This document shows positions 9,921-64,000 of a DNA stretch of 64,000 bases, piece by piece; the first letter of the stretch is position 1, and every line of letters starts with the position of its first letter. Below the pieces are notes generated by a model. The model worked only from the letters and a program-made list of their open reading frames with translations. It had not been told where the DNA came from and did not search any database. Position numbers and translations under genes: made by a program. Origin of the DNA: Rhizaria sp. SCN 62-66 (Eukaryota). The stretch lies in contig MEDY01000018.1 of the NCBI GenBank assembly GCA_001724265.1, forward strand, positions 1-64,000, read 5' to 3'.

Positions 9921-10376
9921 CGGCGCTGCGGAAAACACGGAAGACGTAACAAGAAACGAACACCGGTAGAAATAAGGCTTAGAACAAGACGGGGTTCTGA
10001 AGTCTCGAAAGCGTCTAGAAAAAGCAGCACTACACGCCAGTGCAGCCAAGACACACCTAGAAGAAAAGTTGGAGGTAGTTCGATAGGAAGGAAGCAAATG
10101 CGGATGAGTAAGAAAAGCGTTTCAGGTAAAACTCGGTTGTTATTGTACCATAAATCAATCATGCAACTAATGGACGTCTGTGTCAATGTAGAAAATGGTT
10201 GATAGATGTGCGGGATGAAGGAGCGGTCGAAGTGAGCACGGTCAGTGTCAGCCTGTGCCCGCCTCAAGCCACGATGTATCTGAAGCTATATATTGTCTAT
10301 GAATCGTGCCATCAGAATGTATTTGAGTTGTATCTCACTTGTGAACTTGGTTCTATTTAATGTGTTAATTAGAGGG

Positions 10377-30200: not shown

Positions 30201-33200
30201 GGGCTGTAGCCGTTGCCACCGTGGCCAGCACCGGCATTACCGGGGCCACCGCCAGTTGTGCCAGGGTTGAGGTGATTGCTGGACAGGAACGCGGAGACCG
30301 AGGGCAAGAGAACCCCACCGAGCGAAACCTCGCCAGTGATTTCACTGCTGGAACCCCACAGCTCACCGTTATTCCCCCCATTAATACCAGCGCCAGAGGT
30401 GGAGCTACTCGAGTTGCCCCCGTTGTTGTTGCCATTCAAGGTGACGAGCGGCCCGACGACGCTGACGCTGCTACTCGGCACCAGCGCGAACGCGGGGAAA
30501 CCCGTGTTGTGGCCGTGCGCGGCGTCGGTGTGCGGCACCAGTGCCGCGGCGAGGCCCGCAGCGGCAAGCGGGGACGCGGCTGCTGCGGCAGCGTCTGAGT
30601 CATTACGCGGCGACAAAGAACCGTCAGGCAGCTCACTAGAGCTGCCAAGGTTGTTCGCATTAATGCGAAGAGTGGTGGGAGAAACTAGCGGCGCAAGAGC
30701 GGGCGTCGTGGCCGCAGAGGCGGGCACTGATACTGTACCGCGGGCAGAGAGCGGCCGCGCTGACTGTGGCCGCGACGACCGTGCACCGGCAGCAGTGTTC
30801 GCTGTATCACTGTCATTGCCATGACCAGAGCCGGGCGCTGCGCCCGCGGTGGCGTTCGCAGGCGTCGCGTCGGCGGCGGTGGCGGCACGGCGGCCGCGCA
30901 GCTGCTCGTGCTGCTGCTGCTGCAGCTGCGCTTTCTCCACAGCCTCTTGCGACACGCCGAACGGGATGACGTCGTTGAACTGGTCCTCGTTGCGGGTGAA
31001 GCAGCGGCCGAGGCACGCGAGCAGACGCGACACGCAGCCGTCCTCGCCGCCGCACGTCCGGTGCCCGCCGCGGCCGAGCATCCACGGCCGCGCGTTGGCC
31101 ACCTCCGCCAGCTCAACCTGCTCGCCGTCTTCGGCGTTGTCCTCGCCGTCGGCGGTGTCGGAGGACACGTCTTCTTCGCCGGCAGACCGGCGACGCGCGC
31201 GTTCCGCGCGGCGCAGCTCCTGACGCTTCTTGACCGCGGCGCGCGTGCGCAGGCGAGCCATGTGCGTCTCGTACGAGTGCTCGGGGAAGAAACGGCTCGT
31301 CAGGAACGTGCGGCGACGGTCGCCGCCGGCACCCTGGAAAAGAGAAAACAAATTATAAAAGCGATATCATGAGTAAGGTGCACAAAGAACGAAGGTATTT
31401 TGACAAAACAAAACGGTTCGAGATAAATTTGTCATAATATGGTGATATTGCTGAATGGTGCCTACCTGGAACATAATACCGTCGTTCGACGGCGCAATGC
31501 CGAAGCCGGTGCGGGGAGCGCGCGGCGCGATGCCTGACCGCGCGAGCTGCTGCTGCTGCTGTGGGTGCGCAGTCGTCGTCGTGTCATCGGTCCCGCTCTG
31601 GCTCGCGGCCGAGGCAGCGCCTGCACCGCCGGCGCCGGCGTTGTTCGCACCAGCAGCAGCGCCAGTGACGCGCGACCGCGAGTGCGAGTGCGCGTATGAC
31701 CGTGATCGCGAGCGCGGCGACGGCGGGCGTTGTTGCTGCTCATCAGCGCCAGCGTCGCCGCCGTCCTTGGGGACGACAGCGGCGATGCGGGCCTGTGAGG
31801 TCGCGAGGGACGCACGTCTCTGCTTTCCGTGGGTCGCCGCTGCGGGGGGCTCGGTGCTGGACTGCGAGTCAGACCTCGGCATCTGCTGGTACTGCGGTTG
31901 CTGCTGCTGTTGCTGGTGATGCTGCTGATGCGCACGGAGTCGCGACGGCGACGGCGAAGGCACGCGCGAGCCCGCATGGGGCTTGGTCTTGTTGCCACGC
32001 TGCTGTTGGTCCCGCGCGCCGCCAGTGCGGCGACGCTCACCTGCACTTGCGCCAGCGCCAGCGCCAGCTCCAGTGCCAGTGCCAGTGTTGCCGGCGTCCG
32101 AGTCCGAGTCCGAGCTCGAACTCGCGTGCAGCGCGTTGACGAGCTGTCCGCCGAAGAGCGCGCCCCTGTTGCCCGCGGCGCCGGGCCGCAGCATGCGCTT
32201 TGCGCGCATCACGCGCACGAGCACTTCGACGGCCTTGCTCTCAGCTTCGGCGTTAAGGTAGTCCGCCTTGTCATTATCGCCCGCGCGGCGCGCCTTGTTG
32301 GCCGACTTGAGCATGCGCTCGACGTCCTTGATCGCGAGCGGGATGAGGCCCTTGGGGTCCATCAGCACAGGCCCCGCGCTGCCGCCGCCGGCGCCGCCGC
32401 CGCTGCTGTTGGCGCCGGCGCTGTTGAAGGCGGGGTCCATCATAACAGTGTTGATCATACTGCGGATACGGCGGTGGCCGGGGGTAGCCGCACCGGCACC
32501 GGCGCCAACGCTGGCGCTGGCGCTGGCGTTGGCGGCGCTGCCGGCGGGGGCATTGCTGGAGCCGGGTAGCGCCGTGCCCGACGGTCCAAACAGCGCATTG
32601 TTATTGGCATGGCCGTGAGTCGGCGACAGGAAAGCATTCGCACCCTTGTTGCCACCCGCAGCGCGGCTTGTGTGAGGTGCCTGCCTCGCACTATGCGGCT
32701 GCTGCTGCTGCTGCTGCTGTGGGATAGTGATTGTAAGCTCCGGAGAAAGTCCAGGACCCATACCAGTGCCAGAGCCAGTGTGGGCGTGAGCGCCCGAGCT
32801 CGGGTGACCGTGCGGGTATGCGTGCGTGTTTGCGTTGGCGCCAGTAACGATCGTGACCGTGACACCGCCAGGCGCCGGGGACGGCGGCCGCGAGCGCGAC
32901 CGCGCGTTCCGTGGCGACGGCGACGGCGATGGAGACGGGGACCGGCCGGCCAGCGCCAGCGCGTCAGGGGGGTGACCCCCGCTGCCGCCGTCACCGCCCC
33001 CGGAGTTGCTGCGGGCCGGCGAGGCGGCGGACGGCACCGCGAGCGACGACCTGCGGGAGCCCGCGCCGGCACTAGCGGCGGTGCCGCTGTGGCCGCCGTG
33101 GCGGGGGCCATGCGCGCCAGTCGGCATGACGATTGTCGGTCCCGACGCCCCGATCCCGGCCTTGTTGTTCAGGACGGCGGCGGCGGCGGCGGCGGCGAGG

Positions 33201-36200: not shown

Positions 36201-38949
36201 TAAGTAGGCGGCGGCGGAGGCACGTTGTTGCGCGCACGACGCCGAAGCCGCTGCCCCTTAGACGTGCCGCCAGGGGTCGCACTTACATCGCCAGACGCCG
36301 CAGCAGCGTTGGCGGTGCTGTTGTTGCTGGATTGTTGTTGCAGAGAGGGCTGGCGACTCATGTTCTGGCCCTGTAGCTGCGACTGCTGCTGCTGCTGCTG
36401 CTGCAGGAACAGCTGCTGCTGCTGATACAGCGACAACGACGACTGCTGGCGCCCCAGCGACGGCTGCTGCTGCCCGATCGACGGCTGCTGCTGCAGCGAC
36501 GGCTCGCGGGACAGCGGCCCGCGCTGCCCTAATAGCGACTGCGATGGCGTGAGCCCGCCCCCGCTGCCGTACTGCCCAGCGGCGTAGGCCGCGAACGCTG
36601 CCGGCAGCGGCGGCGGCGCCGGGGCCCCGGACGAGTGACCGTGAGCAGCAGAGTGACCGTGGGCGCCCGTGGTGCTGCTCTCCCGGGTGATGCCGCCGAC
36701 GACGCCGCCGCCGGCAGCGCGGCGGCGGCCGAGGCGGCCGCGAGCGTTGGTGCGCGTGGCACTGCTGTTCGCAGCAATAGGGGGGCTGCTACCACCAGCA
36801 ACAGCGCCAGCGCCAGCGCCAGTGACTGTGTTGCTGCTGTTGTCAGCGATGTGCATGGTTGCACCAAACACGCTCTTTCTAGGAGATGCGGTGCTACTAC
36901 TGTTGTTGCCGTTAGTGTTGGTGTTGTTGTTTTGGTCATAATCACGTTCACTATTACGACCAGAGCCAGTGCCAGAGCCAGTGCCAGTGCCAGCGTCGCC
37001 GTTGCCAGCGCCGTTGTCGCCGCCGCCGCGATTATTGTCGCCGTCGTCGTCATCATCGATGCCGTCGTTGTTGTCACCGTGAGAAGCAGCCCAAGACTCC
37101 TGCCTACGCGGCGACGACAGCGCCTCGTTGTTGTTCGTCACGACTGGCGTGGGTGTGAGGGTGTCCGCGTTGACGATCTCAGTGCCGCCGACAATGCCGG
37201 CGCCCGTGAGACCTTTCTCCTCGAGCGCCTGTTTGGCCAGTGCCTCTAAGGCAAACTGCTGCATCTTCTCCAGCTCTTGGTTCTTGCACATCTCGAAACG
37301 GATGTAGACGACGGCCGTGATGAGTGACACCAGGAAGATGCCGCCGATCATCTCCAACAGCACGAAAAAGATCTCTGAGTAGCGCGATGACACGGCGGCC
37401 GTCTCATACATGATATCTGTCCAGCCTTCCTTTGACACGACGATAATAGTGGTGACGAAGGCGAAAAACACGTTATCGAACGTTGTGAGGCCCATGTTGG
37501 GGTTTTGCCCATAGTCAGCGCAGAACTGGTAGCTCTTGTCGCAGTGGTACGCGCCGGCCGTGTGGCCGCACAGCACGCTCGTCTCGGGGATGCCCGTGTT
37601 GATCTCGTAGCAGCGGTTACGGTACGCGCCGGCAAAGAGCTGCATGCCGACAAGCCCGAAGATGAGAAAGATGAACGTCAGTAAGAGGAGGACGTCGACG
37701 AGGTTGGGCATGGTGGCGAGGAGCGCGGTGATGAGAATACGCATGCCCGGCACGGCGCGAATGCTGCGCAGCGGGCGGAGCACGCGGAGGGCGCGGATAG
37801 CAGTCAGGTTGCCGATAGACGGGACTAAGGTGAGATATGATAAAACGACGACGAGGAAATCGATGATGTTCCAAGGGTCACGGATGTAAGAGTGCTTGCC
37901 GTTGTACAGAAAACCCATGGCAATAACCTTGATGATCATTTCGAGCGTGAATAGAGTCGTGAAAACGTATTCGGCCGCCTGAAACACCTCAGCACCTGTT
38001 GTAACATAGCACAAAGAGAAAATATACACCTAGTGAGGATCATGGCAGATGAAACTGAGGTATTGCATTTGAATCAAAGATATATTATAAATTTACGAGT
38101 GACTCATAACAGTGGGGATATATACCTCATCGGACGAAGAGTTTGTTTGTGAAGCGTACCTGTGGAGCCGGCAGGATAGCCGATATCCGCCGCCAAAAAT
38201 GCGCAATTCGCGATGACAACGAGCAGCGAGACAATGTCAAACCAGCGCTGGTCTGCGATGTGCATGCAAACCCTGCGTAGCGGATTTGCCTTGGTGAAGA
38301 AAAACAGCGACCGTGGGCCGAAATGTGTGCGGCGCTTCTTCATCTGCTTGAGGATGCGTTTGAGGTCCTTCTTGCGGGTAGTGTCACTGTTGCGGGAGGC
38401 GGCTGAAAGGCGCGACGAGCCGTGCTGCGACTGGGATCCCGAGTGCGGGGAGTGTGACCGGCTGCGGCTGCCGTTGCCCCCGCCGCCGCTGCCACCGCCG
38501 CCGCCGCCGCTGCCGCCGCTGTTGCGGCTGTTGCGGCTGTTACGGCTGTTGAGGCTGTGAGTGTTCTGCGTCTGCTGCTGGGGGTTGGTGCTGCGACTAT
38601 TGGTATTCGCGGTCGTCGCGGGGTGAGACAGAGAGCCCCCGGGGGACGGTGACCGGTGATCGGAGTCCAACGCCACTGACCCACCACCGGCTGCCGTTGC
38701 ATCAGCGTCACTAGCGCCTGCATTCGCGATTGGGTTAGCGTTTGCATCGAGGGTGCGCGTACGGTCGCGGCCGCGGGTGCGGACGCGCGAGGGTGGCGAC
38801 AGCGGCAGCGCAGTCATCTCAATATCGCCGGCACCGCCGGCGGCGCTACTGTTGCTGCTGCTGCTGTTGGCGAGAAGGTTGCCGCTGTGCTGCGAGTTCT
38901 GGGGGGGAGCGTCGGGGCCCATCGGCGGGCCCTCACCCACGAGCGACAT
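21296..38949 (-). CDS. Four-domain voltage-gated cation channel alpha subunit, Cav-type EEEE filter (~5785 aa; exons 38949-38160, 37995-31466, 31333-21296)
   Basis: Four S4 segments (IRALRVLRPLRSIR, FRALRIFRVFKLLR, FRAFRALRPLKLV, FRVFRVFRVFRLLKR); pore loops SKEGW, TAENW, TFEMW, TGESW; IQ-like AATVFQRALRR; two GT-AG introns join the exons in frame; ends TAA. Confidence 0.93.
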
Positions 38950-39550
38950 CGGGGAACTCGGGGTACGCGCTGCGGAAGTGAAAGTAGTGCGAATGTGTTT
39001 TAAAGTGCGTGTCCAATCTGAAAAAGTGCAATTTGCTTGGCTAGAAGAAAGGAAGGATGCTGCCGAGAGGCGGGAAGTGTGGCGGAGTAAAGGTGTGTCA
39101 AGGGAGGAGGATGAGCGTCTTCGAAAGAGATGCAGTGAGATAGGCATGATAGCTTAGACAATATAATTAAAATAAAACGTAAAAATGCATTATACTATCT
39201 GATTATAATACTCGCACAAACTCTTGACGGATTGAAGCGGGTGTAAATCGACGTCGCATTTGAATTTCAGTCGCGGAGAAACCAACTCCCCTCTCCAACG
39301 CCTCCTCCATGGGTCTCTCTGCACCTCATCAAAAATAACGATATATCCATGTAATAAACGTGGTTTGTTTGTATTTTTGCGTCACGATGGTTAAATTTGC
39401 GTGTACATACTATACTTAAACTATATCTTATTCTGCTACGATCCTCCTCTATTTCTCATCTCTGTCCGACGACGTCGTCGCCTCCCCTTCGCCCCTCGCG
39501 AACACCACACAACAACGCTCCCCCCAGCAGCGCTAACCCGACGTGTCATC

Positions 39551-41134
39551 ATGGTCCGCGGCCAGATTATTTTCGGCGACCGCCTCCTTACCGCGCTGAA
39601 CGCGGCCCTGGCGTCCCCGCCGCCCAAAAACCGTGCGGCTTGGAAAACCTTCAACAAGATCTGTGACGCCGCCTCCGACGAGGACATGACGCGCGTACTC
39701 ACATCAACGGTCATCGCCCGCCTCCACGAGACGCTCCAGAGCGGTGACCTTGACACAGTGCACTGCGGCATTCGCGCGCTGGGTGCCATCGCGCTCACGG
39801 CCGACGCCGCGTGCAAAGACATCATCTGGACCGAGGCGACTCTCACGCTGCTGCGGAACGCCGCTAATACGCGGTGTGACGCCATTCTCAGCAAAGCCGC
39901 GCTCGACGCCGCCGAGGCCGCGCAGCAGAAGCATCGCAAGCGCGGCGGTGGCGGGGGTCTGCTGGTGCTGTCGTCCGGCGCGTGGAACAGTGATCTGAAT
40001 TTCTTCTGCGATTTCTTCTGGCTGGTAAGCAATCTCGCTGCCATCCGCTGCGTTGTGCCGCGGCTGCTCGCGCACTCGGTGTTCGGGGACGCCCCGGCGC
40101 TACTGGCGCGCGCACGGCTGTACAACGCGAAGCGCGGCAAGAAGAACAGCGGCGACAACGGTGGCGATAAGGACGCCGGTGACGACGGTGATGAGGGCAA
40201 CGGCAACTGCGCCGACACCAGTGACCAGTACGATAGCGATGCCGAGCATGACAATGACGACGATGCGACGGTCATGCGGTCTGCGCACCCCGGTTTGCGG
40301 TGCGTTAACGAGCTCGTGTTTGCTGTTTCTAACGCGCTAGAGGTCGATCCTTACGGCAACGACCCATACCAGTCCAACGACACTGACGACAATGATGATG
40401 ACAACAACGACAATGATGATCACGGCGATGATACTGGTGACTGTGCTAGTGGTAAAGAAGAAGACGACGTTGGCGACTGTGGGAGCACTAAGGCTGCCAA
40501 GACTAAGTGGGTTCACTACTTACACTCGAGCGGTGTCATCGCCCTGTTCGCCCGTTTCCTCAGCATTATGTCCCGCCTGCCTGCTGTCGACGAGAGCGAC
40601 TCACACGAGTTTACGGAGTTTCACCTCAAAGCCTACCGCGTTATTGTCCGCGATCTCCTTTCGGGCATTGCGCTGCCAATCGCCAAGGCCGAGGCCGCGC
40701 GCGCTACAAAAAATAGCAAAAACAATAATAACTACAAGAGCATGAGCGGCGCCCCCGAAAACACTAATGGTGAGTCAGCGCCGCCGCCTCAAAACGACTT
40801 GATGGCGGAGTTCGTCGCGCTGGGCGGGCTCGAGACCGTGCGCTTCGCGGTCATGGCCGGGCCCAACGTGGCGAGTGACCGTGAGCGGCTGCTCCGCGAG
40901 GTCGGCTGCGAGGCGCCGGCGGTGGACGCGCTGCGGCCGTACTTAGCCGCGGAGGACGCGGGCCGGCAGCAACAGCAGCGGCTGCAGTTCGGTATGGGGA
41001 ATGATAACGCCGATCTCGTCGGGGACTGCTATATCGCGGCCCGGGAGCTGTTGAGCAAGTTCGTGCTGCCTACCACGGGCGGCTCCGTCGACTCGCTGTA
41101 CAAGACCGTTGTGGCCGGCAGCAAGAGGCGCTAA
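39551..41134 (+). CDS. Divergent armadillo-repeat protein (importin-alpha-like motifs)
   Basis: First ATG at 39551. Helical segments IRALGAIA, WLVSNLA, NELVFAVSNA, EFVALGGLETV and YIAARELLSKF recall ARM/importin-alpha repeats and are separated by acidic inserts; ends TAA. Confidence 0.5.
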   Translation: MVRGQIIFGDRLLTALNAALASPPPKNRAAWKTFNKICDAASDEDMTRVLTSTVIARLHETLQSGDLDTVHCGIRALGAIALTADAACKDIIWTEATLTLLRNAANTRCDAILSKAALDAAEAAQQKHRKRGGGGGLLVLSSGAWNSDLNFFCDFFWLVSNLAAIRCVVPRLLAHSVFGDAPALLARARLYNAKRGKKNSGDNGGDKDAGDDGDEGNGNCADTSDQYDSDAEHDNDDDATVMRSAHPGLRCVNELVFAVSNALEVDPYGNDPYQSNDTDDNDDDNNDNDDHGDDTGDCASGKEEDDVGDCGSTKAAKTKWVHYLHSSGVIALFARFLSIMSRLPAVDESDSHEFTEFHLKAYRVIVRDLLSGIALPIAKAEAARATKNSKNNNNYKSMSGAPENTNGESAPPPQNDLMAEFVALGGLETVRFAVMAGPNVASDRERLLREVGCEAPAVDALRPYLAAEDAGRQQQQRLQFGMGNDNADLVGDCYIAARELLSKFVLPTTGGSVDSLYKTVVAGSKRR

Positions 41135-42078
41135 GCGAGACGCTTATCGGAGTCGTTTGGTCCCGAGTGGGATTGAATGTGTGGGTCGACTAGGTGATGT
41201 CTATATTATTTTTTGAGATGTTGAGATGAATTTCTTGTTTTACTTGTATCTCTTGGGTATGTCTGTGGGTAATGCGTGTGTTTTTAATGATCAATTTTGG
41301 TTTTTGTGTTTTGCAGTCGACAACACAGCGTTTGCATGATTGTAACTGCACTTTTCCCTTTACTCTTGTGCGTGGCACTTTTGTTTTTACAATGTAAGAC
41401 TTCGCGTGTACGAAACAATGACAGCGAAAAGCACTACAATTATGCAGTGTGTAAGACGCGCGACCATTTTCTGTGTGATTGCGTGACAAGCACTGCAAGT
41501 TCATTGCTTGACGTATAAAAGTTGTCCATGAGCTCGCCACCTCGTGTAGAAGAAGCAATTTGTGTTTTTCACCAAATTTAGCATCTATACCGATGATTCT
41601 TTGTGTAATATTACATATTATCACTGTGCTATATTTTCAACATCTAATACTTGTGGTATGGTTTACATTTGCATTCTTTTTGTCTATCTTAGCTTATACA
41701 CGTATTTCTTCTACTTAAAACTGGATGGAACCTGCAACATGTTTAACCTTGAGGTCAAGGAAAATCAAAGAAGCACAACATTAAGAACGCACAGACCTCC
41801 ACGAAATACATCAGCATACAACGCCAACATCTAATAGCTAATCCCCAATGCAAGCCACAACAAGCTAACTTGTTCCCATTGTTACACATTGTAATCATTC
41901 TCGTGTTTATTTTTGCTTAACCCAGGCCAAACATGAAAAGAAACACCAAAAATGAATCTCAAGTCTTAACAAATAGATACACTTCACACCGGAAAACCTC
42001 TCTCAATCCAGAGACTCCACACTAACATTCGCTCTCGCGACGTACTTAGATTCGAATCTAAGCAGTACTTAAACCGGC

Positions 42079-44165
42079 TCACCGCACGATCTCGTCGGCG
42101 TCGAGCTGCAGCAGCTGCGGCAGCGCGGCGGCAACCTGCGCGCGGTACGCCTTGGCGGCCGGTGTGCCCGCGCCCGCGCCGATCTGCGTCGGCTTGTAGG
42201 TCGGGCCGGCGCCGGCGCAGGGGTTTTGCTCCAGATACACCGTAGTGAGGCTGGGAAGGGTGCGGAGCAGGGGCAGGCACGACAGGTCGGCGATGCGGTT
42301 GTTGTTCATCCAGAGGTCCTCCAGCAGGTCCAGGCCCGCGAGGTTCTCGATCTAGAGAAGAGCAGGACGTGTGTGGTTGAGACGGAGCACGTGTTAGCAG
42401 TGCGCTTTGCTGAATCACAATATCATCATTAAATAACAATAAATCCTCGTAGCAAACATCGAGGGTAAAATAAAATGAATATATCGAAGATCTAAAGCCT
42501 ATTCGTACCTTGGTAATGCGGTTGCCTGCGAGGTCGAGGATCTTAAGTTTCTTCAAGTGTTGGAAACCGTCCATGACCGAGATACCTACGGATTAACACA
42601 CACACAAAAACGACACATGGTCAAAACATATGGACATAAAAGTATCTTTACAGACGGGGTATTTCAGAATGAACGAGATAATAAGGCTTCATCAAAATAT
42701 GAGCGATTTTAAAACTTGTTTCATGTTTTCGTACCGTTGTGGCTGAGGTAGAGCTCCTCGATGTTCTCCAACTCCTTCAGCCCCTCGCCAATCTCAGTCA
42801 GCCGGTTCGCCTGCAAGTGCAGCACGCGGAGCTTCTTGAGAGTCTGAATGCCCTCAATGCGCATGATCTTATTGCGGCCGAGATAGAGCTGCTCGAGGTT
42901 CACCAGCGGGAGCAGGTTCTGCATGACGCGGATACGATTAGAGCCCAGCTCGAGCATCTTGAGCGTCGGCGCAAAGTGAGACAGGTCTCCGATTGCCATA
43001 ATCTTGTTCTCGATCAGGTACAGGTTCTCCAGCTTCGTCGACCCCTCCAGGTTGTCAGTGTATCGCAGCTCGTTGAACGATAAGTCGAGCTCAACCAGCT
43101 CGGTCAGCTGGAGGAAAGGCTTGCCGACGGGCTCGGCGCTCTCCCCGTCGCGGATCCGCTCAAGCGCAGCCTTGACCTTGGGCTTGTCGGCGTCGGCGCC
43201 GAAGACGGACCGCGGCATGCCCTTGGTGAAGCCCAGAGCGTTGGGGGCTTTGGCGTTGGCGGGCATGTGCAGCGGCGTGAGGCGGTTCTCGTACAGGTCG
43301 AGCAGAGTGAGGTTTTTGAGCGCCGAGATACGGTGCAGGTTGACGTTACGAACAACGTTGCAGCGCAGGATGAGTTCGGTGACGGTGTCGACGCAGGCTG
43401 ATGTATCGCCCATGTCGTCGATGCGTTCGTTGGTCATGTCGATGTAGTCGGAGTCAGTCGGCAGCTCGCTCAGAGGGTTGAAGTCGTTGTCAGCCTCGGT
43501 AAACTCGTACGTCTCGCCGTCGTCGTCGGCGGGGGCGGCGGAGGGCTCGATCACGGTCACACCGGAGCGGGCGTCATAGTTTGCGGCGGCGGCAGGGCTG
43601 GTTGGGGTACTGTCAGCGGCGGCGGCGGCGACGGCGTCTGCGATGGGAGTGAGGCCCGTGGCGTTGTTGGCGTGCTTTACGAGGAGAGACGTGTCGACGA
43701 CCTTGATAGGCTTGTCAATCTTCGCGCCAGTAACCTAAACATGTCAAAGGAGTACAAACAAGCCAAGAGAGGCAAGAGCGGACTCAAGGTGAGTGGAACA
43801 TCAAAGGCGACATATATATGTGCTATAATCATACATTTGAGACAAAAAACGCGAAGATGAATATGTAAAAACGATTGATATAAGGTAAAATAAGCATTCG
43901 TTTCGAAGGTGCGTTTGACTGTGTTTTTCTTCGTGATATGTATACGGACCTGCTTGTGGGGCGCGGTGGGGGCCGAGGCATGGGGCGGGTGTGTGGGGCC
44001 GCCAGAGTGCATGTCGTCACCCTCACTGTGCTCGGAACCCGGGGAAATGGGAAATATGGCCTGGTCGTGTGCGTCGAAGGCGTCGGTGGTCGCGACGACG
44101 CCGTCCGCCGCGGCGGCGTTGGCGGCGTTGAGCGATAGGGCAGGGTCCTTGGGCTCGTTCGACAT
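42079..44165 (-). CDS. SDS22: Protein phosphatase 1 regulatory subunit SDS22/PPP1R7-like LRR protein (521 aa; exons 44165-43950, 43734-42735, 42585-42509, 42351-42079)
   Basis: 22-aa SDS22-type LRRs (LDLYEN, LDLSFN, LELGSNRIR, LYLGRNKI, LYLSHNGI, LWMNNN) and an LRR cap (LTTVYLEQNP...YR...LPQLLQLDA); three GT-AG introns keep the frame; ends TGA. Confidence 0.88.
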
Positions 44166-44573
44166 CAGGGGCTACAGGGCGGCAAACAGGACGCAAGGCC
44201 GCAAAAAGGTGAGATGCGCAAACAAGAGTCAGTAAAACTACTGAGCAGCAGTGTTGCAGATAGAAGCATTGATAGGGTGAAGACCACCTCGCAGAAAACG
44301 CAAGTTGCACGCTTTGCGAGTGCGTTCGGAAGATTGCAAATTGTGAGAGTCTGGATCACAACAGTTTGACCGTCACATAAAACGTCATTAAGATATAATA
44401 GAAGAAACACAAGCTTAGCAACTATAATAATATATGACTCTCTAAAAGTACGATTGTAACTCGATCGACATTATTTCCTTCGCCGCCGATCCCACTCTCT
44501 CAGCGATCCCACCACCACAAATCCTTCCCAGCTCCAGCTCCGCCACTTGCGCCTCGTGACACGCATCTGCATA

Positions 44574-45809
44574 ATGGCCCAGCACATTCACACGCACAAC
44601 TGCGGCTGTGCCGAGGCCGCCAAGGGTCTGGGCGACCTCTACTCACTCTACTCGCAGGTCAAGATGGACGAAGTCGTCACTCTGAACGAAGACACGCCCA
44701 ACTCTGGCCGCGCCGTTATCAAGCCTTTCGCCACGCGCCTCGACAACACGGCCACCGTGGAGAGCTCATGCGACGGCGAGCTCATTTTCCGCATCCCCTT
44801 TGCCGCGGTCGCCAAGCTGAAGGCGATTGTGGTGCGCGGCGCCGATGGGGCCGACCGGGCTCCGGCCAAGATGAAGCTGTACGTAACACAAAACAAGACG
44901 CCTAGCACTATAAGGATCAACACCTTGCGCTAATGTTGGGACTCTTTGGTTTTAAATGTGTATCACATATGCAATATCTAAATTTTGCTGCCTTTACGCA
45001 TATATGCATGAGATAATCTCCTTTTTGATCAAGCCTTTAAGTTGTTCACGATGACACGGAACTCTTGATTCAGACCTTCCATCCTCACAAATCGATATTA
45101 AATCACCTCTTGTGTCGGCAATACGCGTATAGGTGGGTCAATCGTGACGACATTGACTTTAGCAACGCCACCGGTGTCGCCCCGACTCAGGAGATGGCTA
45201 TTCCCTACGATGCCACTGGTGAGAACAAGGTACATTATCCCGCCGAATCAGCAAATATCTGTAATATACCGCATTATCTTCAGCAAAGTATGAGCTCATG
45301 TTTTCTATTTGTGTTTTTGTTGCTTTTCTTTGACAATAGATCCCCGTGAAGCCCGCTCTTTTCACCAACACGTCCAAGCTCACGATATATCTCGCCCGCA
45401 GGTATGTTGTTTCACCGTCTCAAACAAACTGCTCCTGCACATAGTCGAGACCAGAGTAATTTGTACTGAGTTATATGGGCATGCCACTATTGAATTTAGA
45501 ATATAATACTTTGAGTATCAAGCGATTGGCAAACAAGTTGCACGTGTATTCCAATTTTTGTTTGTCATGCTTCGCTCACACGCACACTCACTCTGACTCT
45601 CTCCACTGCTGTGTTGTTTTGTTTCGCTTTGTTTTGTCTTGCGCAGCGATGAGTCTGACGAAGAGCTCAAGCTCGGCTTCCTTGGCCTTTTTGGCCAGCC
45701 CACCAACATCAAGCACGGCATCGTCAACGTCGTGTACGAAGCACGTGCTAACCCCGCCGACTACGAGGCCGAGGACATCAAGAACAAGACCAGCAACTAC
45801 GCCGTGTAA
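44574..45809 (+). CDS. PITHD1: PITH domain-containing protein (208 aa; exons 44574-44878, 45133-45229, 45340-45401, 45647-45809)
   Basis: YSLYSQV, TLNE, VESSCDGELIFRIPF, KLKAI, WVNRDDIDFSN, YEARANPAD; three GT-AG introns join in frame; ends TAA. Confidence 0.88.
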
Positions 45810-46396
45810 TGCGATAAGTTTTGCATACAACAAACATGCATAGAACAAACATAAAACATATATATTTTTTTAAACACGTGCTAGCAAGCTCCGATGATGT
45901 GCGAGTGTGAACGAAAAATATTGCTGCAGTTAAGTTCATGAGGGATAATTTATTAGTAGGAACATGGTAGTGCATCAATACAGCACAGAAACAAATACAA
46001 TATAATCGCAACATCATTACAACTAAAATATTCCTTGATATCAAACAAGACCGAGAGTCAAAAACAAACCTGCACGTCAAAGTCCAAAAATGACTCAAGC
46101 CTTCTCAAAGTTCTCGTCTGTCACAACTCATGTGAACTAGTCATACAGTCACAATATTACAGCTACAAGATCACATACACAATAAGCGTATCATATTATT
46201 CTCACGCAATGCCGCATTCACACACTGACATGAACTCTTCCGTGAGAGTTAGTCACCCGGTACCCGGTCGCAGCCAAGCAACAAGCAGTCATGATTTTGA
46301 CCGCCAACTACATCGTTTCATGACCACTTTCAGGTAACGGGTCGCACTCTCTCGCACACCCAGCTGTGATACAACAAGAGAGATTTCACTGTCCAC

Positions 46397-49300
46397 TCAC
46401 CGCTTCTTGCTCTGGCAGACGCGCCTCTCGGTGGCGAGCTGCGCCTCGACTGACACGAGTCGCTTCAGCAGCGACTGTAGCGCCAGGTGAACCTGCGACG
46501 CCAGCGGCCGCGCGCGCGGGTCCGTCTGCGTGCATGCGCGGACAATAGCTTGTACTTCCCACGGACAGTACATCGGCAGCTCGAGCCACTCGCCCGCCCC
46601 GCCCGCGCCGCCGTCGCCGCCGCCGCCGCCGCTGTTGTCGGAGCTGGTGAAGCTCGGGGTGCAAAGACCGCCGCTCAGGGAGCTGTGATCGGCGGGGGCG
46701 CTCTTGCCGGCGTCGGTGTCGCTGCCAGCGCGCGCGCGCAGGCGCGTGACGCCGGCGGCCGTGGCCGTGGCATTAGCAGCGCGGATGGTGGCCAGTGCGT
46801 CGAACGAGGGCGCCTGTGAGGCGTATATCTCCCACAGCACGATACCGAGCGAGAAGACGTCCGACGGCAAGCCGTACTCGCCCGTGGCGACCTCGGGGGC
46901 CATCCAAGATGCGGTGCCCATCATGCTCGTCATCAGACTGCTCGAGGTGAAGGTCGAGGAGCTGGGCAGAGTGGGGTACGCACTGCCGCCGCCGCTGGCG
47001 GATAAGGGGCTGACGTACGCTGTGAGACGACTGTGGGTGCCGTTGCCAAGAGCGCCCCCGCCGCCGTTGCCGTTGCCGTTGCTGTTTGAGATAGCGCTGC
47101 CGCTGATGGTGACCGTGGGCGTTAGCGGCGAAAGGGAAGCATTGTCGGGGCTCAGCACGCTGATGCTGCTGCTGCTGGTGCCAGGGTCGCTGCCGTTGTT
47201 CGACGACAGCGGCGCAGCAGTGCTAACGGCAGCGACGGACGCATTGCTGTCCCCTCGGCTATTCCCACTCGAGACGGAGTCAGCGTCGGAGCCGGTCGCC
47301 AAAGCAGATACAATAGGGGTCACCGACGGCTTGCCACCGAGAGCGGCGGCGCTAGAGCTGTCGTTGGGAGAGCTCACTGTGCGCGTATCGGCAGAGGGGG
47401 AAGGGGCGACCTTGCCAGCGCACGCCTCGGCCAGCAGCATCGCTGGCGTCTGGGCCACGGCAACGGCGCTCTGAATCGGACTCGCAGTCGCGGTGAAGCA
47501 GCGCTTGCTGCTCAAGACGGCGCTGGTCTTGGCGCCCTTGTCGGTGACGTTGGACTGCGAGGACATGACGATGCGGGAAATGCCGAAGTCGGTCAGCTTA
47601 AGCGTGCCGTCCGCAGCGACGATGTAGTTGGGGGACTTGATGTCGCGGTGGAGGATGCGGTGCGAGTGAAGGAACGCGACAGCAGCGGCAGCGTCACATG
47701 CCAGCCCCGTCTTGGTCGTGAGGGACCATATGTCGTTCGCGCTGCCCGGGCCGCACAAAGCGGCGATACCGCTCTTGTCGGCAGACGCGTTGGGACCCAG
47801 TCTCAGACTGGCGCTGCCATTGCTGACGGGCGTCGAGGGGGTCGCGTCACTGCCACTGTTGTTGTTGCTGATAATGCTGCTGTTCCCGGGGATCCCGGCC
47901 GGCGCCCCCGCCTGCCCACTATGGCCCGCGGTGGCGCCGGAGACCGCGAGCGAGCCTGTGGCGCTGCCCGAGAAGCTCGGCGAGCGGCTGAACGCGGCGC
48001 TGACCGGCGCGGGCACGGCACCGAGGTTGGGGCTGTCGGTGCGGCTCGTGTTGCGCGCAATACCCTTGCCTTGGGGAATGCCTGTGCCGTTTGCGCTGGC
48101 TGTGGAAGCAAGAGTGAAGTTGTCGCCAGCGGTGGTGGTGTTGTCGGTGGCGAGAGTCACGGAGCCGATTGTGACGATGCTAGATGCAAGGGAGCTTGCG
48201 CTGGGTGACCGTGAAATGGAACGCACACTCTGTTGGTCACTGTTACTGGCGTTGCTGCTGTTGGAAGTGTCGCCGGTAGGAGAAGCAAGCGCGGCTGCGC
48301 TGGGCGTCGAGAGAGTGATGCCGGTGTGCAGGGGAAACCACGAGGCCAGAATCGCCTCGTCCGTGTCGCCCACGCGGTCGATGATCTCGCGCTGCGCCTG
48401 GATGCGGTCAAACAGCGACCCGCCCTCACACAGCTAGGTGACTATGGCGACAGCGGGGGGAATCACGCAGAGCCCGTAGCAGCGGACCACGTTGCGGTGC
48501 TTGAGCGCGACGTGCATGACCGTCTCCATGGAGAACGCGCGGATCATCTCGGGCGTCAGATCCATAAAGCGCGTGAAGAACTTAGTCGCCACGTCGCGGC
48601 CCCTGTATCGCGCGCGAAAGACCTTGCTGAACGCGCCCTGGCCGAGGATCGCGTTCGCGTCGACTTTGAGCAGCGAGAACGGGATGATGTGGGCGCGGTT
48701 GTCTTCGATCAGGTCCTGCACTTCCGCCTGCAGCATCATGTCGTCCGCGTCGGCCAAAAGACCGAGCTCCAGCCGGTTCAGCACGGAGGTCTTGGTCGCA
48801 GGCGCAGGCGCGGGGCTAAACAAAATAAAATGAAACATTATTAGACGGCATAAATGAGTGATTAAAAAAATGAAATGTCGTAATAACGAATAAAACAAAA
48901 ATAAACTGTAAAATGAAGCACTTTTTTTCATGGTATTTGCATTATTTTGATGCATTATTTTGATCTTGATAACGAGACGTACGTTCCCGACTTCGAGCCA
49001 AAGATGCACGATTTGGCCTCGGCCTTGGCGCTACCGCTCGCACTCACAATTTGACTGGGAGTTGGGGACTTAACTCTCTCGCTGCCAATGCTGCCAAAGT
49101 TAGCACTGTCGCTGGTAGCAATTGCCTTATCGTGACTATTGATGCTGTTGTTGCCGGCGCAAGTGGGTGGGAGAGGCGTGATCGAGTTGGCCTTTGCACA
49201 AATGAGTCGACACTTGCCCATGCCTCTGGTCGACGCCGACGGCGACACCATCTCACCGCCATACACCTGCGCGACCCCGCTTTCGTCATGAGGATGCGCG

Positions 49301-50997
49301 GCGGCGTAAGCTGCGGCGGCCGCGGCCTCGGTCGCCGGGTCCAAGTCCGCCAGAGACATGCACTCCGCCTCCGCGCCACAGAGGGCGCCGCCGCAGCCGC
49401 CGTCGTCGTCGCCGTTAGCCGCAGCGCTGGCCGCGGCGTTGGCTGCGGCGACCTGGGGGTCGATGGGGTAGTCTGTGATGACGTGGTTGAGACTCTTCTT
49501 CTTGCCGTGACCCTTCGCGTACCCGCCGCTGCCATCACCACTGTGCGCAACAACGCTGACGACAGATCCAGTGGCAACGCTGCCGTCTCTGCTGCTCTTG
49601 CTGCTCGATTTCTTGCTCAGATGGCCGGAGTAGGTCTGCGGCAAGCCCTGGAACTGCTTCTTGCCCGGCGCATTCGCGTGGCCAGCAGCCGCGTTGTGAC
49701 CGTTGTTGCCCGTGTTGCCGTTGCTGGTGTTTTGGCCGAGCGCGGGGAGACTGCCGACGACGATGGGGGGAACATAGCTCCCCGACTGCGAGCGGGGGAA
49801 CTTAGACCGGCTCAAACCGGACTCCGACCTCTCAAGCCCGCCGCCGCCGCCGCCGCCGTGAGTGTCCAACAAAGCAGCGTCTAAGTTATTGCCATTGCCG
49901 CCGTTGTTGTTGTTTTTGGCGCCAGCGTAGTGGCTGTTGAGGCTGCGGTGACTGTGCGCGTACTTTTGACTGCCGTTGTAGTTAGCGTTGTGACCGTTGC
50001 TGGCGTCGCTGTCATCGTAGTCTGCGTGGTCAAAGCTCGCAGTTTGGGCAAGTCCTTCAGAGCCGCGGGTGCCGGTACCGTCGGCGAGCTGCGCGTACGG
50101 CCCCCACGCACTCTTGTTATTGCTGTTAGTGTTGTTGTTGTTGGCGGAAGCGCCAGGGCGGTTGCTCGGGTGCGTGATTGTGCCGTGGGCTAGCACCTGG
50201 GTACTTACACTGCCGCCCTCCTCAAGCGCCTGGAGAGCCTCTAAGTACCCCGACTTGCGGCGCAGCAGCCAGTCCCAGGCGTTGCCAAACTGCCAGTAGT
50301 AGCTGTCGGCACGGACCACGGCGAAGAGCAGCACGGGGAAGACGACGTCACAGACGCTCGAGGGGATGTAGAACAACATTTCGTTCACGGACACGTCTCC
50401 GAGCAGCAGACAGTAGAAAACGACCCAGAGGAGGCGGTAGAAGAACATGTAGAGCGAGAAGGGCACGATGGCGTCGCGCGGGGACATGGGCAGGGCGGGG
50501 AAGCGGGCCGCGATGAGAATGTAGAGGTGGAATAGTACCGAGATGGCGTGGTACGAGATGCAGTAGATGAGGTCGTTCTTCTTGTCAACTGTCACCATAA
50601 GGCCAAAAAAGATGCCTGTAAGGGGCCAGATGGTGGCGTAGCATAGCCCGCGGCGCAGCGCCGACTTGGCGATCGATTTCTGCAGGAAAAGCGTGGCGAA
50701 ACTGCCGCGTGGAAGCTCAAATGCGAGCCAGGTGATGGATTGAACCCACATCGGGACGGTCAGGTACAGGTACGACGCCGAGCTAAGGATCTCGAGCGCG
50801 ATGGTGAACAGGCACATCACCAGGACCGGTTTATAGAACGGCAGCAGGACATATCGCGCGCCGAGCATCTTGCCAGAGCGGGCGAGCTTCTCCTGGTGGC
50901 GCGTCTGCAGCACCAACGAGAGCCCGATCGCGATGCCGATGATGCGGGCAATCAGCGTGATAAGGAACTTGCGCTCCACAAACGTCGAGAACACCAT
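46397..50997 (-). CDS. Seven-transmembrane domain + TKL-type protein kinase (~1477 aa; exons 50997-48983, 48815-46397; in-frame TAG at 48434-48436)
   Basis: About 7 hydrophobic helices ending in RADSYYW; kinase motifs LGQGAFSKV, VATK, HRNVV, IVT*LCEGGSL, HRDIKSPN, DFG, GTASWMAPE, SDVFSLGIVLWE, DPRARP; ends TGA (a further small 3' exon cannot be excluded). Confidence 0.88.
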
Positions 50998-51644
50998 CGG
51001 GGGTCAGCGGACACGAGCGCAGCGGGCTGCGCAGAGACCAAGACTGTGTTTCGAACAAGGAGAGCGTCGAGATGCGATTGTAGCGCGGGCTGCAAGCGCG
51101 GGGTTAAAGCACGCTGGTTCGCGGTATGTGCGGGCTTCAAAAAGAGCCACGTGCACAAGAAAGCGGCTGCGTTCGGTTTGGACGAAGCTGGGAGAGAATA
51201 ATTGGCGGGGGTCGTCGGGTTAGTGAGTGGGACAGAAGTAGTGGATGAGACAGGGGATAGAAAGAAGGCCGAAAGGATAAAATCAGGGCAATACAATAGC
51301 GTGTTGATGTGTTAAATCTGAATTATAATATTTACACCTAAAGTAGTCGTTTTTTCAGAAGATAGCCTCAGAGACGGAATATACAGTTGACAATTGATCT
51401 CACAAGTTTTCGCGTCGTCGACCCTTTGACGACGACAAACCTCACCACGTAGCCCCAGCTAGCTGACTGGAGAGGAGCAATCCGCACAGTTTTGGACAAC
51501 GATATTAAGTCCTCTAAACGTATAGTTTATTTGTAGAATATAATAGCACGTCTTATGTATTATATCTCATGGGCATATGTATTTGTCGATTGTATCTACT
51601 TTAGTTTAACTTTTCCGACTGACGAACGAGAGCGCGCACTGCGA

Positions 51645-52537
51645 ATGTGGTCACGCTCCTTCGCCTCCCCTGCCGGGGCCAAGGCGCCTCCCGCCGGCAC
51701 TGTCTCTCAGTTCGGACTGACGACCGTTCCTGCCTCGCGCGTGACGGCCGGCCTGGGCGGCATTTGGGGCCGTACCATGCCCTTCGCATCCCCCGCGAAG
51801 CCCGCAGCCGCCCCTGCCTCCGCCGCCGCTGCCCCGGCGGCTGCCCCGGCGGCTGCCCCGGCGGCTGCCCCGGGCCCCGCCCGCGCTGCCGCCAACCAGT
51901 CCGTCTCCTTCCGGGCGTCCCCGCTGCTCGCCAGCCAGTCTAGCGCCGACACCGAGCCGTTGCACGCTGAAGAAGCTGCTGCCAGCAAGCCTGTTCTGAA
52001 TGTTGCGAAGACTGACAAGAAGGACAAGAAGGACAAGAAGGACAAGAAAGATAAGAAGGCCGCCGCCGCTAGCGCTGCTGCTGCTGCTCCTGAAGCTGCT
52101 GATGCTGCTGTCAACGACGTTGTCATCAAGATCGAGAAGGTTGTTGAAGTAGTTGCCAACGACAAGGCTGCCAAGCCTCCCCGGGCTAGCAGCAAGTCTG
52201 CTAAGTCCTCCGTCAAGATCCCTCCCGTCAAGATCGAGCCGAACGAGGTGAAGCAAGCGGACGCCGACGACGCCGCTGCGGTTGCGCGCATCGCCAGCAA
52301 TGCGATCAAGCCCACTGAAGCCGCCTCTGCCGCTGCTGCCGCTGCCGCCGCCGCTGCTGCTGCCGCTGCGATGATTGATACTGACGCTGCCCTGGCGCCC
52401 GCGGCTGAAGCTCCTAACCATGTCGCTGTCGCCGCTGCTGATGCTACGACGAAGACGAAAACGAAGGCGACTAAACGCGCCACAGCGTCCGCCGCTGACT
52501 CACAGTCGCAATCATCCTTTGCTGCTGCCGCCGCTGC

Positions 52538-52570
<33 letters not shown>

Positions 52571-52819
52571 GGCTTCCGAGTCAGCAGCAGCAGCACCTGC
52601 GCCTGTGACATCTGTCCCTGCGACCCCGGCACCCAAGGCCAAGCGTCCCCGCGTTGCCAAGACGGCCAACACACCCGCACCTCCATCTGCGAACAGTAGT
52701 AACGGCAACGCCAACTCTGCCTTACGTGATGACGACGTCATGCTCCCCGCTCCCCCCGCTGCGACCACGACTGCTGCTGCTGCGCATGTTGCTGGCGCCA
52801 ACCAGCAGGCGGCCGCGCG

Positions 52820-52859
<40 letters not shown>

Positions 52860-55682
52860 GCGTCTGCCGCTGCCTCTGCCGTGGCCGCGGCGACCGGGGA
52901 CGCATCGGCCGCCGCCGCTGCCGCGGTCAAGACGGAGGCGGCGATGGCGATGATGCTACAGGCCGTGAACGCGATCGCGAACCTCAGCCCAAACACCATG
53001 GGGAGCTTTCACTCTCACTCCAACTCCAGCTCGAGCTCCAACGGCGGTGGGATGATGGGCACTCCTGGGAAGCAGAGGGGCTCCATTGGCGGGAACCTGC
53101 TCGCAATGATGATGTCGCCTGCGAAGCACGATAAGAAGGACAAAAAGGACAAGAAGGAGAAGAAGGACAAAAAGGACAAGAAAGACAAGAAGGAAAGCAG
53201 CAGTCTTGGCGCGAGCACTCCCGCCCATGTCCACAGGAGTGAGAGCAAGAGCAAGGATAGTAACCGCAACAGCGGCCGCGCAATGAACGATGATGACGAC
53301 GACGACGACGGCTATGCTGACAACGACGGCGACGATAACCACAGCTCTGATTCGGCTTCTGCCTCTGCTGCCGCCGCCGCCGCTGCTGCTGCTGCTGCCG
53401 CTCCCGCTGTAGCTGTTGTTGTTGCCCCTCAGGCCCCCGCAGTGCGTTTGACCCGCGAAGAGTAGCAAGTCCAGCGCGCTGCCGCCAAAGAGGCCGCCAC
53501 CGCCGCCAAGGCCGCCGCGAAGCTTGCCGCGAAGGAAGCCGCCGCCGCCGCCAAGGCCGACGCGAAGACCGCCGCCAAGGAGGCCAAGGCGGCCGCGAAG
53601 GCCGATGCCAAGGCCGCCGCTGCCAAGGCCAAGGCCGACGCTAAGCAGGCCGCCCGGGAGGCCGCCGCGCAGGCTAAGGCCGAGGCGCGCGCGGCGGCCA
53701 AGGCTGAGAAGGCGCGGGCGCGGGCGGAAGCCAAGGCGGCGGTCAAGGCAGCGGTCGCGGGCACGATTGCTGCTCTTGGTGCCTCGAGAGGGGCTAACAG
53801 CCGCGAGTCGGCGGTGAAAGTGAAGCTTGAGCCCGGCGCGATTGCCATCGCCACTGGTAACAAGAATAGCAAGAGTACGAACGCGAGTGCGAGCCATGTT
53901 GCTGGCTCTGGCTCTGGCCCGATTGCTCCCAGTCGTGAGTCAAATGCTGGCGCTGAGACCGAGACTGAGTCTGAGTCAGACTCTGATACGGCGTCTGAGA
54001 CAGAATCTGACTCTGGGTCAGACTCAGACTCAGACTCTGATTCTGAGGCTGAGGCTGAGGCTGAGGCATAGGCTGAGGCGTAGGCCCCTGCTTCTGCGTC
54101 TGCGGCTGCGCCCGCGAAGTCTGGCTCCGAGACTGTTTCTGATTCCGACTTAGACTCCGAGACTGACTCTGACAGCGACAGCGACAGAGACGCTGACTAC
54201 GTAAGCAAGGCTTCTCGCCACAGCTCGGCCGCCGCCGCCGCGATCGCCGCCGCCGACGCCGCGGTGAACAAGAGCAAAAAGGCCCATACCCAGGCCCAGG
54301 CTAAAGCCAAGGCTATGGCGGACGATAGCGAGACCGCCTCCGACACTGACTCAGACACTGGCTCTGTCTCTGGTGCGAAAAGCTCTAAGGCGGCGGCCGC
54401 CAAGGCCACTGCTGCTGGCAAGAATGTGATCGCAGTCAAGAAGGAGCCTGCTGTTGCAGTTGTGACGGTCGTCGAGCCCAAGGCGAAACCTCTCACCAAG
54501 GCGCAGCAACAGAAGGCTGCCGCTGCCGCTGCCGCCGCTGCGGCTGCAAACTCTGAGACTGAGTCCGACTCGGACTCGGACTCAGAGCCCCAGTCAAAGA
54601 CGAAGGCTGCGGCAAAGACGGCTGGCTTGACTGGTGCAGCTGACGCAGCTGCTGCGAAGCCTAAGACTTCTACTCGTTAGACAAGCAACGTCGCTGTCAT
54701 CGCAAGTCCTGTCTCTAGCTCTGCTCCAGGATCCGCTACTACTGCTGGCTCTGCCTCTGCCTCTGCATCTGCGTCTGCGTCTGCGTCAAGGTCATCAGCT
54801 CCTGCGACGGCGGCTGCGGCTACGCTGTCCGTGGTGATCGCGCACACTGCCGCCGACCCAGTCATCGCCTCTCTTCCCTCCGTGTCCTCTGCGCTCTCCA
54901 CCGGTACACATGGGGGTACACATACCATCCCAGCTGGTCACCTGATTGCGTCGCGCCACATCCCGGGCGTCACCAACTTTTTTGGTCCTTGCCTCAGCTG
55001 GGCGCCGCGCCCTGTTTGGCCAGCCCACGACCGCGCGTCGCTGGGCGCCGTGGACGCGGTGCTTCCCGTCACGTCACACAGCTTCGTCGCAAAGTTCAGC
55101 AGTAGCTCGAGCAACAACAACAACAGCAGCAGTGACAGCGCAGTCGGCTCAAACTCTCACTCTAACTCTAGCTCTAGCTCTAGTGCGAGTGCGCGTGCGA
55201 GTATGGGTGATGGTGGTAATGCAGCCTCGTCTGGTGACGCCGCAGTCGCTGTCGCAGGCGGCGCAGGCGCAGGCGCAGTTTTGCCCCCGTTGGTGGCGGT
55301 GTACCGCGCTGTGACCAACGCCGCCCGCGCCGCTGCGACGGCCCCGTCGGTGGTGGCTTTCCAGCGGGAGCAACAGGCCGGGTACCGCAACCAGGCCGAC
55401 CGCGTCACGGGGTTCATGGCGCGCGCCGCGCGCTCCCACAACAGTTATAACAGCGGCAGTAGCAGCAGCGGCAGCAGCAATGTGAGGCCGGCGACTGGAG
55501 TGACCGTGAGCAGGGGGAAGAAGGTGTCCGGCCAGGAGTACCCGTACGGGCGGCTTGACTTGTTGACGGCGCCGGTGTGGGAGAGCGCGCTGCGGGACGG
55601 CGCCAGTGCGGGCGGCAAGGTGTGGGAGGACGCGAAGAAGCTTATGAGTGCAACGGCGTTGACGCAGGCTCGTAACGAGTGA
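51645..55682 (+). CDS. Ala/Lys/Ser/acidic low-complexity protein, probably nuclear (1345 aa; four in-frame TAGs at 53463, 54069, 54081, 54678)
   Basis: Track ORFs 51555-53465, 53814-54071, 54264-54680 and 54831-55682 are all in one frame, separated only by TAG, with continuous composition (poly-Ala, KKD repeats, AK-rich helix, SD/SE tracts); ends TGA. Confidence 0.72.
52014..52059 (+). repeat. 9-nt KKD coding repeat (second array at ~53130-53195)
   Basis: (GAC AAG AAG)n encoding DKKDKKDKKDKKDKK. Confidence 0.85.
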
Positions 55683-63782: not shown

Positions 63783-64000
63783 GGTCGCTCAGCGTGGGGG
63801 ACTGCTGATGGCAAGCAGTGCGCGCGAAAGGCAGGGGAAGTGGTGGGAGAGAGCGCGCGGGTGTGACGGTGCGTTCAACTTAAAGACGCCAGAAAGTGTC
63901 TTTTGGTGAGGACTACAAAGGTACAAGCAGCAACACACAATAAATAATAGCACAGGTTAGCTAGGAAGTGACATTTTGTGATATGCGACTTGTGCTGGGA

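Follow-up and report, generated by a model that had tools for sequence, protein, structure and literature searches.

Peritrich ciliates translate both UAA and UAG (UAR) as Glu, a nuclear code listed as NCBI table 30. The same UAR assignment is reported in Blastocrithidia nonstop, where UGA encodes Trp and UAA also serves as a stop (PMC12153298), and the two codons have separate meanings in the nuclear code of Oligohymenophorea sp. PL0344, with UAG read as Glu, UAA as Lys, UGA as stop, and suppressor tRNA genes found (PMC10553269). Reassignment of UAG only, with UAA kept as a stop, is described for a rhizarian known as exLh (Leu) and for Iotanema spirale (Gln) (PMC5304391), and phyllopharyngean ciliates have reassigned UAG only, to Leu or Gln (PMC11687900). 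Here we describe an in-frame TAG at the hinge of a predicted protein kinase encoded in the first 64,000 nucleotides (hereafter the window) of contig MEDY01000018.1, deposited as Rhizaria sp. SCN 62-66 (assembly GCA_001724265.1). Together with the stop-codon pattern of the window, this codon suggests that UAG is probably a rare codon for Glu in this organism, with UAA and UGA still serving as terminators.

Read on the minus strand (reverse complement of 48410-48460), the hinge codons are GCC ATA GTC ACC TAG CTG TGT GAG GGC GGG TCG CTG, or AIVT*LCEGGSL. Two stop-to-stop open reading frames (ORFs), 48434..49030 and 46397..48433, meet in a single frame at this TAG, and the predicted tryptic peptide over the hinge would be ...CYGLCVIPPAVAIVT-?-LCEGGSLFDR, where the question mark stands for the TAG residue. 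Contigs from runs X2 and X3 across 47820-49525 show no differences from the window, TAG included. X2 and X3 belong to different studies and years; over 31100-51050 their contigs, depths and joints are identical. The two probably represent duplicate filings of one data set, and we counted them as a single witness. A contig from X4, a separate study from 2025, ten years later, carries single-nucleotide polymorphisms (SNPs) at 47681, 47782 and 47905 within 47424-48643 and keeps the TAG. The same codons, again including TAG, are present in L001, an independently assembled metagenome contig. In the protein collection, the ORF ending at the hinge TAG is recorded from seven contigs, as a 191-residue fragment. 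The hinge TAG is real and common to separate populations.

The gene around this codon is predicted to encode a membrane-receptor-like kinase, in which a multi-pass membrane domain is fused to a TKL-type kinase. Once its two exons are spliced, the hinge TAG is the sole internal stop of the coding sequence. With TAG read as X, the translation matched the Pfam families Pkinase (122.9 bits, cut-off 31.7) and PK_Tyr_Ser-Thr (118.1 bits, cut-off 23.1). The Gly-rich loop, the VAxK lysine, the alphaC glutamate and the HRD, DFG and APE motifs characterize the protein kinase catalytic domain, and their counterparts here (GQGAFSKV, VATK, SMETV, HRDIKSPN, TDFG and MAPE) all lie in the same frame around TAG. 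Two low-complexity inserts, each about 200 residues long, interrupt the kinase: the first follows the hinge/alphaD region and the second lies in the activation segment. The GC content at third codon positions (GC3) is about 0.8 in both exons; in the same frame, the 80 codons preceding TAG have 0.89 and the next 80 have 0.75.

Comparison with L002, an orthologue from another metagenome, gave a ratio of nonsynonymous to synonymous differences per site (pN/pS) of 0.34 for the N-lobe upstream of TAG. Downstream, the alphaE-HRD-DFG block had a pN/pS of 0.25, the APE block 0.37 and the C-terminus 0.41; the 23-codon piece directly after the hinge gave 0.75, but is short. Values of 0.25-0.41 behind the TAG indicate that the downstream part has been kept as coding sequence. 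The predicted gene is otherwise intact and has evolved under purifying selection before as well as after the TAG. Near its 3' end, the X5 RNA contig at 46372-46678 has an 18-base gap, and 19 gap positions occur in the X4 DNA contig spanning 44797-46659; these gaps may reflect an in-frame polymorphism in length close to the C-terminus of the kinase or its 3' end.

Splicing does not account for the codon. The 180 nt around the hinge TAG have a GC content of 0.60-0.70 and lack any AT-rich stretch, whereas all three introns identified in the window are rich in AT and bounded by GT..AG. L002 aligned over the site without a gap (AVAIVT-X-LCEGGSL against AVALVS-E-LCDRGSL). The GC-rich surroundings and the gapless alignment together leave splicing as no explanation for the TAG. 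The initial annotation, made from the sequence alone, had given the codon string AIVT*LCEGGSL, described an intact N-lobe with HRD, DFG and APE downstream, and held that no intron could remove the codon. All three statements stand: the string lies on the minus strand with its TAG at 48436..48434, the motifs occur in one frame on both sides of it, and the local composition and L002 alignment speak against an intron. Where that annotation had allowed for GAG or CAG in the reads, the contigs of X2/X3, X4 and L001 all show TAG.

The pattern extends across the window. We counted codons in 17 ORF pieces from about 13 genes (17,163 codons, including about seven intron codons at the kinase splice sites) and found eight in-frame TAG codons, no TAA and no TGA. 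The TAGs fall in four of the roughly 13 genes, at a frequency of about 0.5 per 1000 codons. When the window was searched for any stop with 80 stop-free codons on either side, the only TAA or TGA in a sense frame was an intronic TGA at 31369. Frames remained open and coding after each TAG, so that no frameshifts were seen; the gene at 51537-55679 keeps a single frame open across 1,381 codons despite four TAGs. The 13 genes themselves end in TGA (7) or TAA (6) and never in TAG, each with AT-rich sequence following, although 13 terminators are a small sample. Under a random-nonsense model based on the codon usage of the window, the probability that a nonsense codon is TAG is 0.56-0.64, and that of obtaining eight TAGs out of eight is 0.009-0.028. 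The base following TAG is C at four sites (three TAG CTN and one TAG CAA), G at three and A at one.

Relatives of the kinase point to Glu at the hinge. We used 159 residues of the N-lobe and hinge, with X at TAG, as the query in an exhaustive search, which returned 3,183 proteins at E <= 0.001. The best 150 of these, together with five cluster members, were realigned to give 203 domains. The hinge column held E in 190 domains, P in four, Y in one and a gap in eight, three of these gaps being the window's own truncated ORF. Glu therefore accounts for 190 of 195 residues, with no Q, L, S or K. In the closest relatives, which are 52-55% identical, the hinge sequence is LVTELCAKGSL or LVTELCEGGSL. 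These relatives came from the exhaustive search; a word-based search with the N-lobe piece for longer proteins gave no homologue, and a single-protein query against genome contigs found no relative.

A metagenome scan yielded five loci (L001-L005), with L004 and L005 belonging to other, lower-GC organisms. L002 shares 74% identity with the window kinase in the best segment and has the same N-terminal domain; its hinge codon is GAG. L003, a paralogue from the same metagenome as L001, also has GAG. The L002 gene (230-4642) is one intron-less ORF of 1,470 codons that ends in TAA and lacks any TAG, and by this comparison the intron at 48982..48816 is either confined to the lineage of the window or has been lost from that of L002. 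As the kinase ORFs of L002 and L003 contain no TAG, they are uninformative on the code of their genomes. Among solved structures, the nearest are KSR2/KSR1, TNNI3K, CTR1, TAK1 and RAF, and the aligned KSR2 and KSR chains have Ser at the hinge position. In these alignments the position is variable among distant TKL kinases, and a nearly invariant Glu only within the gene's own subfamily. The initial annotation had taken TAG for Glu, as in most kinases, or Gln, as in Raf kinases, had thought Leu or Tyr unlikely, and had proposed reading this column in the closest orthologues and in-genome paralogues. That reading, now made in one orthologue and one paralogue, gave GAG in both; with Glu so dominant in the column and Gln absent, the choice narrows to Glu, and a single Tyr and no Leu among 195 residues agree with its doubt about those two.

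Two further lines of evidence bear on the residue. The DNA at 54045-54083 reads GAG GCT GAG GCT GAG GCT GAG GCA TAG GCT GAG GCG TAG GCC, with two TAGs occupying the place of GAG in a GAG-GCN repeat. In addition, we scored the residues at offsets -3 to +3 of the eight TAGs by a neighbour-context log-likelihood trained on the window's own proteins. Summed over the eight sites, the log-likelihood ratio was highest for E (+5.56), followed by K (+1.74), R (+0.53) and A (+0.49), and was negative for L (-1.59), Q (-3.42), Y (-3.61) and S (-5.81). The top rank of E persisted when the kinase site was left out, and also when one of the two adjacent sites was removed. The informative TAG sites thus correspond, in the sequence comparisons made, to Glu or GAG.

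Under a code in which UAG means Glu, an ancestral GAG at the kinase hinge would have become TAG through one G-to-T change. This change would be synonymous, so the full-length receptor-like kinase would still be made. By analogy with other UAG-only codes (PMC5304391), UAG might be decoded by a tRNA-Glu whose anticodon is CUA, while an altered eRF1 would have lost efficient recognition of UAG. The retention of UAA as a terminator implies that such a CUA anticodon does not read UAA. A fuller proposal adds that this is an uncultured, non-ciliate, GC-rich wastewater or bioreactor protist with an unlisted nuclear code (UAG as Glu, UAA and UGA as stops) at an early stage, in which UAG is found mostly in genes with weak codon bias and the sister lineage represented by L002 still has GAG. 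We regard this composite as evenly balanced between right and wrong.

Several points weigh against Glu as the meaning of UAG. The whole evidence base is small, consisting of one 64-kb window and L001-L003, three short contigs. A simple nonsense mutation from GAG to TAG would likewise produce a column of Glu and GAG codons in the relatives, and the hinge site alone therefore cannot show translation; it is because of the window-wide pattern that TAG is taken as translated. KSR, nearest among solved kinases, carries Ser rather than Glu at the hinge position. Only three of the eight TAG sites bear on the residue, the other five being without an alignable homologue, and in the GAG-GCN repeat Ser or Gln would read acceptably too. 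The context test assumes independent positions, which makes it over-confident. TAG is the commonest nonsense outcome anyway under the window's codon usage (56-64%), the channel gene of roughly 5,500 codons contains no TAG, and the genes that do are mostly of lower GC3, which could mean relaxed selection. TAG followed by C is a weak termination context, and its occurrence at four of the eight sites (TAG CTN at three) would fit leaky readthrough as well. A scan for tRNA genes found none in the 64-kb window, and an Rfam scan of the same sequence gave no match. Lastly, contigs of X5, a poly(A) RNA run, were present only at 46372-46678, 47098-47408 and 49289-49678, and could derive from DNA carry-over; X5 cover across the TAG was unreadable, its joints being swamped by repeat artefacts, and uncovered parts were not counted as evidence.

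The alternatives differ in whether TAG is translated at all. Under the standard code, the kinase and the three other TAG-bearing genes would be young pseudogenes or truncated alleles, produced by GAG-to-TAG nonsense mutations that are fixed or segregating. The orthologue's GAG is exactly one step from TAG, and both the bias of nonsense towards TAG and the lower GC3 of the affected genes suit this explanation. It nevertheless requires four genes to have acquired eight nonsense codons without any frameshift, TAA or TGA, improbable for the all-TAG outcome alone, and would place four of them in the gene at 51537-55679, whose frame has stayed open. The lack of TAG terminators among the 13 genes, the sharing of the kinase TAG by populations that differ in SNPs and were sampled years apart, the intact catalytic motifs and the low downstream pN/pS also count against it, and we consider it unlikely, if still deserving of attention. 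Sequencing error, assembly error or a chimeric contig could be suggested by the low depth, about 5-7 per contig in X2-X4. However, the TAG is identical across runs and studies, including a contig with true SNPs nearby, and in L001, and mistakes would not yield TAG only. For the hinge site assembly error is largely refuted, and as an explanation we give it hardly any weight.

If TAG is a sense codon, Gln is a natural candidate, being the commonest outcome of UAG reassignment and the residue that near-cognate readthrough would insert. CAG-to-TAG is a transition, and CAG is abundant (470 codons in the window count). One of the eight TAGs precedes Q (TREE-TAG-QVQ), and the context score ranks Q first at two single sites. 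UAG-only reassignment to Gln is also described in Iotanema spirale (PMC5304391) and two phyllopharyngean ciliates (PMC11687900). Against this, Gln is missing from the hinge column, the orthologue and paralogue have GAG rather than CAG, the repeat TAGs sit at GAG positions, and its summed context score lies far below that of E. Q residues have a neighbouring Q in 33% of cases (199/606) but only one of the eight TAGs does, a difference that alone is not significant. Taken together, these points make Gln improbable. Slightly less probable again is some other residue (Leu as in exLh, Lys, Ser or Tyr), or ambiguous reading by several near-cognate tRNAs. Lys comes second in the context score, Ser occupies the hinge of KSR kinases, and the repeat would look natural as ...EAEA-S-AEA-S-APASAS. 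Leu has precedent with UAA as stop in a rhizarian (PMC5304391) and phyllopharyngean ciliates (PMC11687900). Yet the hinge column contains none of Leu, Ser or Lys and only one Tyr, the relatives have GAG, and the context scores for Leu, Ser and Tyr are all negative.

Glu is therefore the residue we favour at the eight TAGs, which are listed with the parts of the kinase gene in the table.

Table. Features of the kinase gene and in-frame TAG codons in the window.
Feature	Position	Strand	Basis or remark
Kinase exon 1: multi-pass membrane domain (about 6-7 hydrophobic helices) and long low-complexity linker	48983..50997	-	Spliced coding sequence
Kinase intron, GT..AG, 167 nt, GC 0.25, phase 2	48816..48982	-	Absent from orthologue L002
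Kinase exon 2: TKL-type kinase with two long low-complexity inserts	46397..48815 (terminal TGA 46399..46397)	-	ORF, Pfam, splicing
Kinase N-lobe, upstream of TAG: Gly-rich loop GQGAFSKV, VATK Lys, alphaC Glu, gatekeeper Thr	48437..48700	-	
In-frame TAG just after gatekeeper Thr, kinase hinge (AIVT-TAG-LCEGGSL)	48434..48436	-	Codon reading; same TAG in X2/X3, X4 and L001
Catalytic core downstream of TAG: HRDIKSPN (47650), DFG (47590), long activation-segment insert, WMAPEV (46906)	46889..47716	-	
TAG in SRAP-domain gene, between MCGR N-terminus and Pfam-matched C-terminal half	11685..11687	+	
TAG in gene 18008-20299 (AFAK-TAG-LYQSLF)	19481..19483	-	
Second TAG in gene 18008-20299, just before P-loop (GLRHSGKST)	19172..19174	-	
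TAG in low-complexity gene 51537-55679 (TREE-TAG-QVQ)	53463..53465	+	
Two TAGs (54069, 54081) in place of GAG in GAG-GCN repeat	54069..54083	+	
TAG in gene 51537-55679; frame open 333 codons further, GC3 up to 0.88	54678..54680	+	

In the SRAP (HMCES-like) gene at 10374-13076 (+), several hundred low-complexity residues, which contain the TAG, separate the MCGR from the C-terminal half. The gene at 18008-20299 (-) has a GC3 of 0.54 in a region of GC 0.49, far below its neighbours. It gave only a weak Pfam match to AAA_16 (E 0.022), at its P-loop, and a word-based search returned no homologue of 420-1337 residues; a His/Cys pair ahead of the P-loop, without a Pfam match, is reminiscent of caspase/CHAT-type proteases.

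Another gene of the window encodes a giant voltage-gated cation channel (21299-39153, -), with ORFs of 2,220 and 3,356 codons that both contain Ion_trans and huge low-complexity inserts. Between these two ORFs lies an in-frame intron of 132 nt (31465..31334), with TGA 31369 as its single stop. We also asked whether this TGA might be another recoded stop, but discarded the idea, as it lies within that AT-rich GT..AG intron. The ORF at 38107-39153 probably represents an upstream channel exon, with a GTGAGT donor at its end. Further along, an EF-hand ORF (62202-63788) and a coiled-coil ORF (61210-61785), both on the minus strand, look like exons of one gene (61210-63788) with AT-rich introns, one of which ends in TAG 61788. 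That TAG was rejected as exonic because it is the AG of the intron acceptor, and TAG 62198 because the AT-rich sequence around it, situated between two exons, resembles an intron. Another three ORFs end in TAG and are followed by AT-rich sequence (9460-9969 +, 39436-40350 - and 61214-61747 +); they were rejected as examples of TAG termination, being antisense frames of longer genes.

The source of the window is best described as a protist. Runs carrying the stretch are labelled as bioreactor, wastewater and activated-sludge metagenomes. The best named matches of the channel, at 31-37% identity, are from Thecamonas trahens (36%), Fabomonas tropica, Apiculatamorpha spiralis and Diphylleia rotans, and those of the kinase, at 35-39%, are from the saprolegnialean oomycetes Thraustotheca clavata and Achlya hypogyna. 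The sequence appears to be nuclear DNA of an uncultured, GC-rich eukaryote with AT-rich introns of spliceosomal type, and such distant matches allow no finer placement.

Compared with described TKL kinases, the window gene shares the motifs of the kinase fold, and with its subfamily it has in common the signature ...YGLCVxPP....(T/S/M)ELC..GSL. It differs in its two long inserts, and KSR has Ser at the hinge position. The named proteins nearest to it, OQS07301.1 (T. clavata) and OQR86743.1 (A. hypogyna), are only 35-39% identical. The layout of membrane domain and kinase recurs in P0003, P0004, P0006 and L002, and is present twice over in P0005, from the oomycete T. clavata; the window kinase may resemble the oomycete fusions of G-protein-coupled receptor and TKL kinase ('GPCR-TKL').

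The proposed code has partial counterparts in the systems described above. It resembles that of PL0344 in that UAG would mean Glu, distinct from the meaning of UAA; however, PL0344 is a ciliate and has given UAA a new meaning too (Lys), whereas here TAA ends six of 13 genes in GC-rich DNA with ordinary-looking GT-AG introns. With Blastocrithidia and the peritrichs it shares a UAR-box stop codon read as Glu. In those organisms UAA and UAG have both changed, and UGA too in Blastocrithidia, in contrast to the eight TAG, zero TAA and zero TGA of the window. UAG-only reassignment is rare in nuclear genomes; in the papers cited here it leads to Leu or Gln, with Glu reported only where UAA has changed too (PMC10553269, PMC12153298, PMC5304391, PMC11687900). 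A literature search of limited coverage found no code with UAG as Glu and UAA kept as a stop. If true, Glu-coding UAG with UAA and UGA stops outside the ciliates would be an independent case and a new combination. Gene callers split such genes at TAG, as with the kinase fragment in the protein collection, so the organism's catalogued metagenome proteins would be truncated.

The closest parallels in design are exLh, Iotanema and the phyllopharyngeans, where likewise only UAG has changed and UAA is still a terminator, though UAG means Leu or Gln there and would most likely mean Glu here. UAG is also frequent in exLh (384 in 71 genes, PMC5304391), compared with eight in about 13 genes in the window; if the reading as Glu is correct, this low frequency would offer a rare view of early codon capture and a natural system in which to follow the capture of a stop codon.

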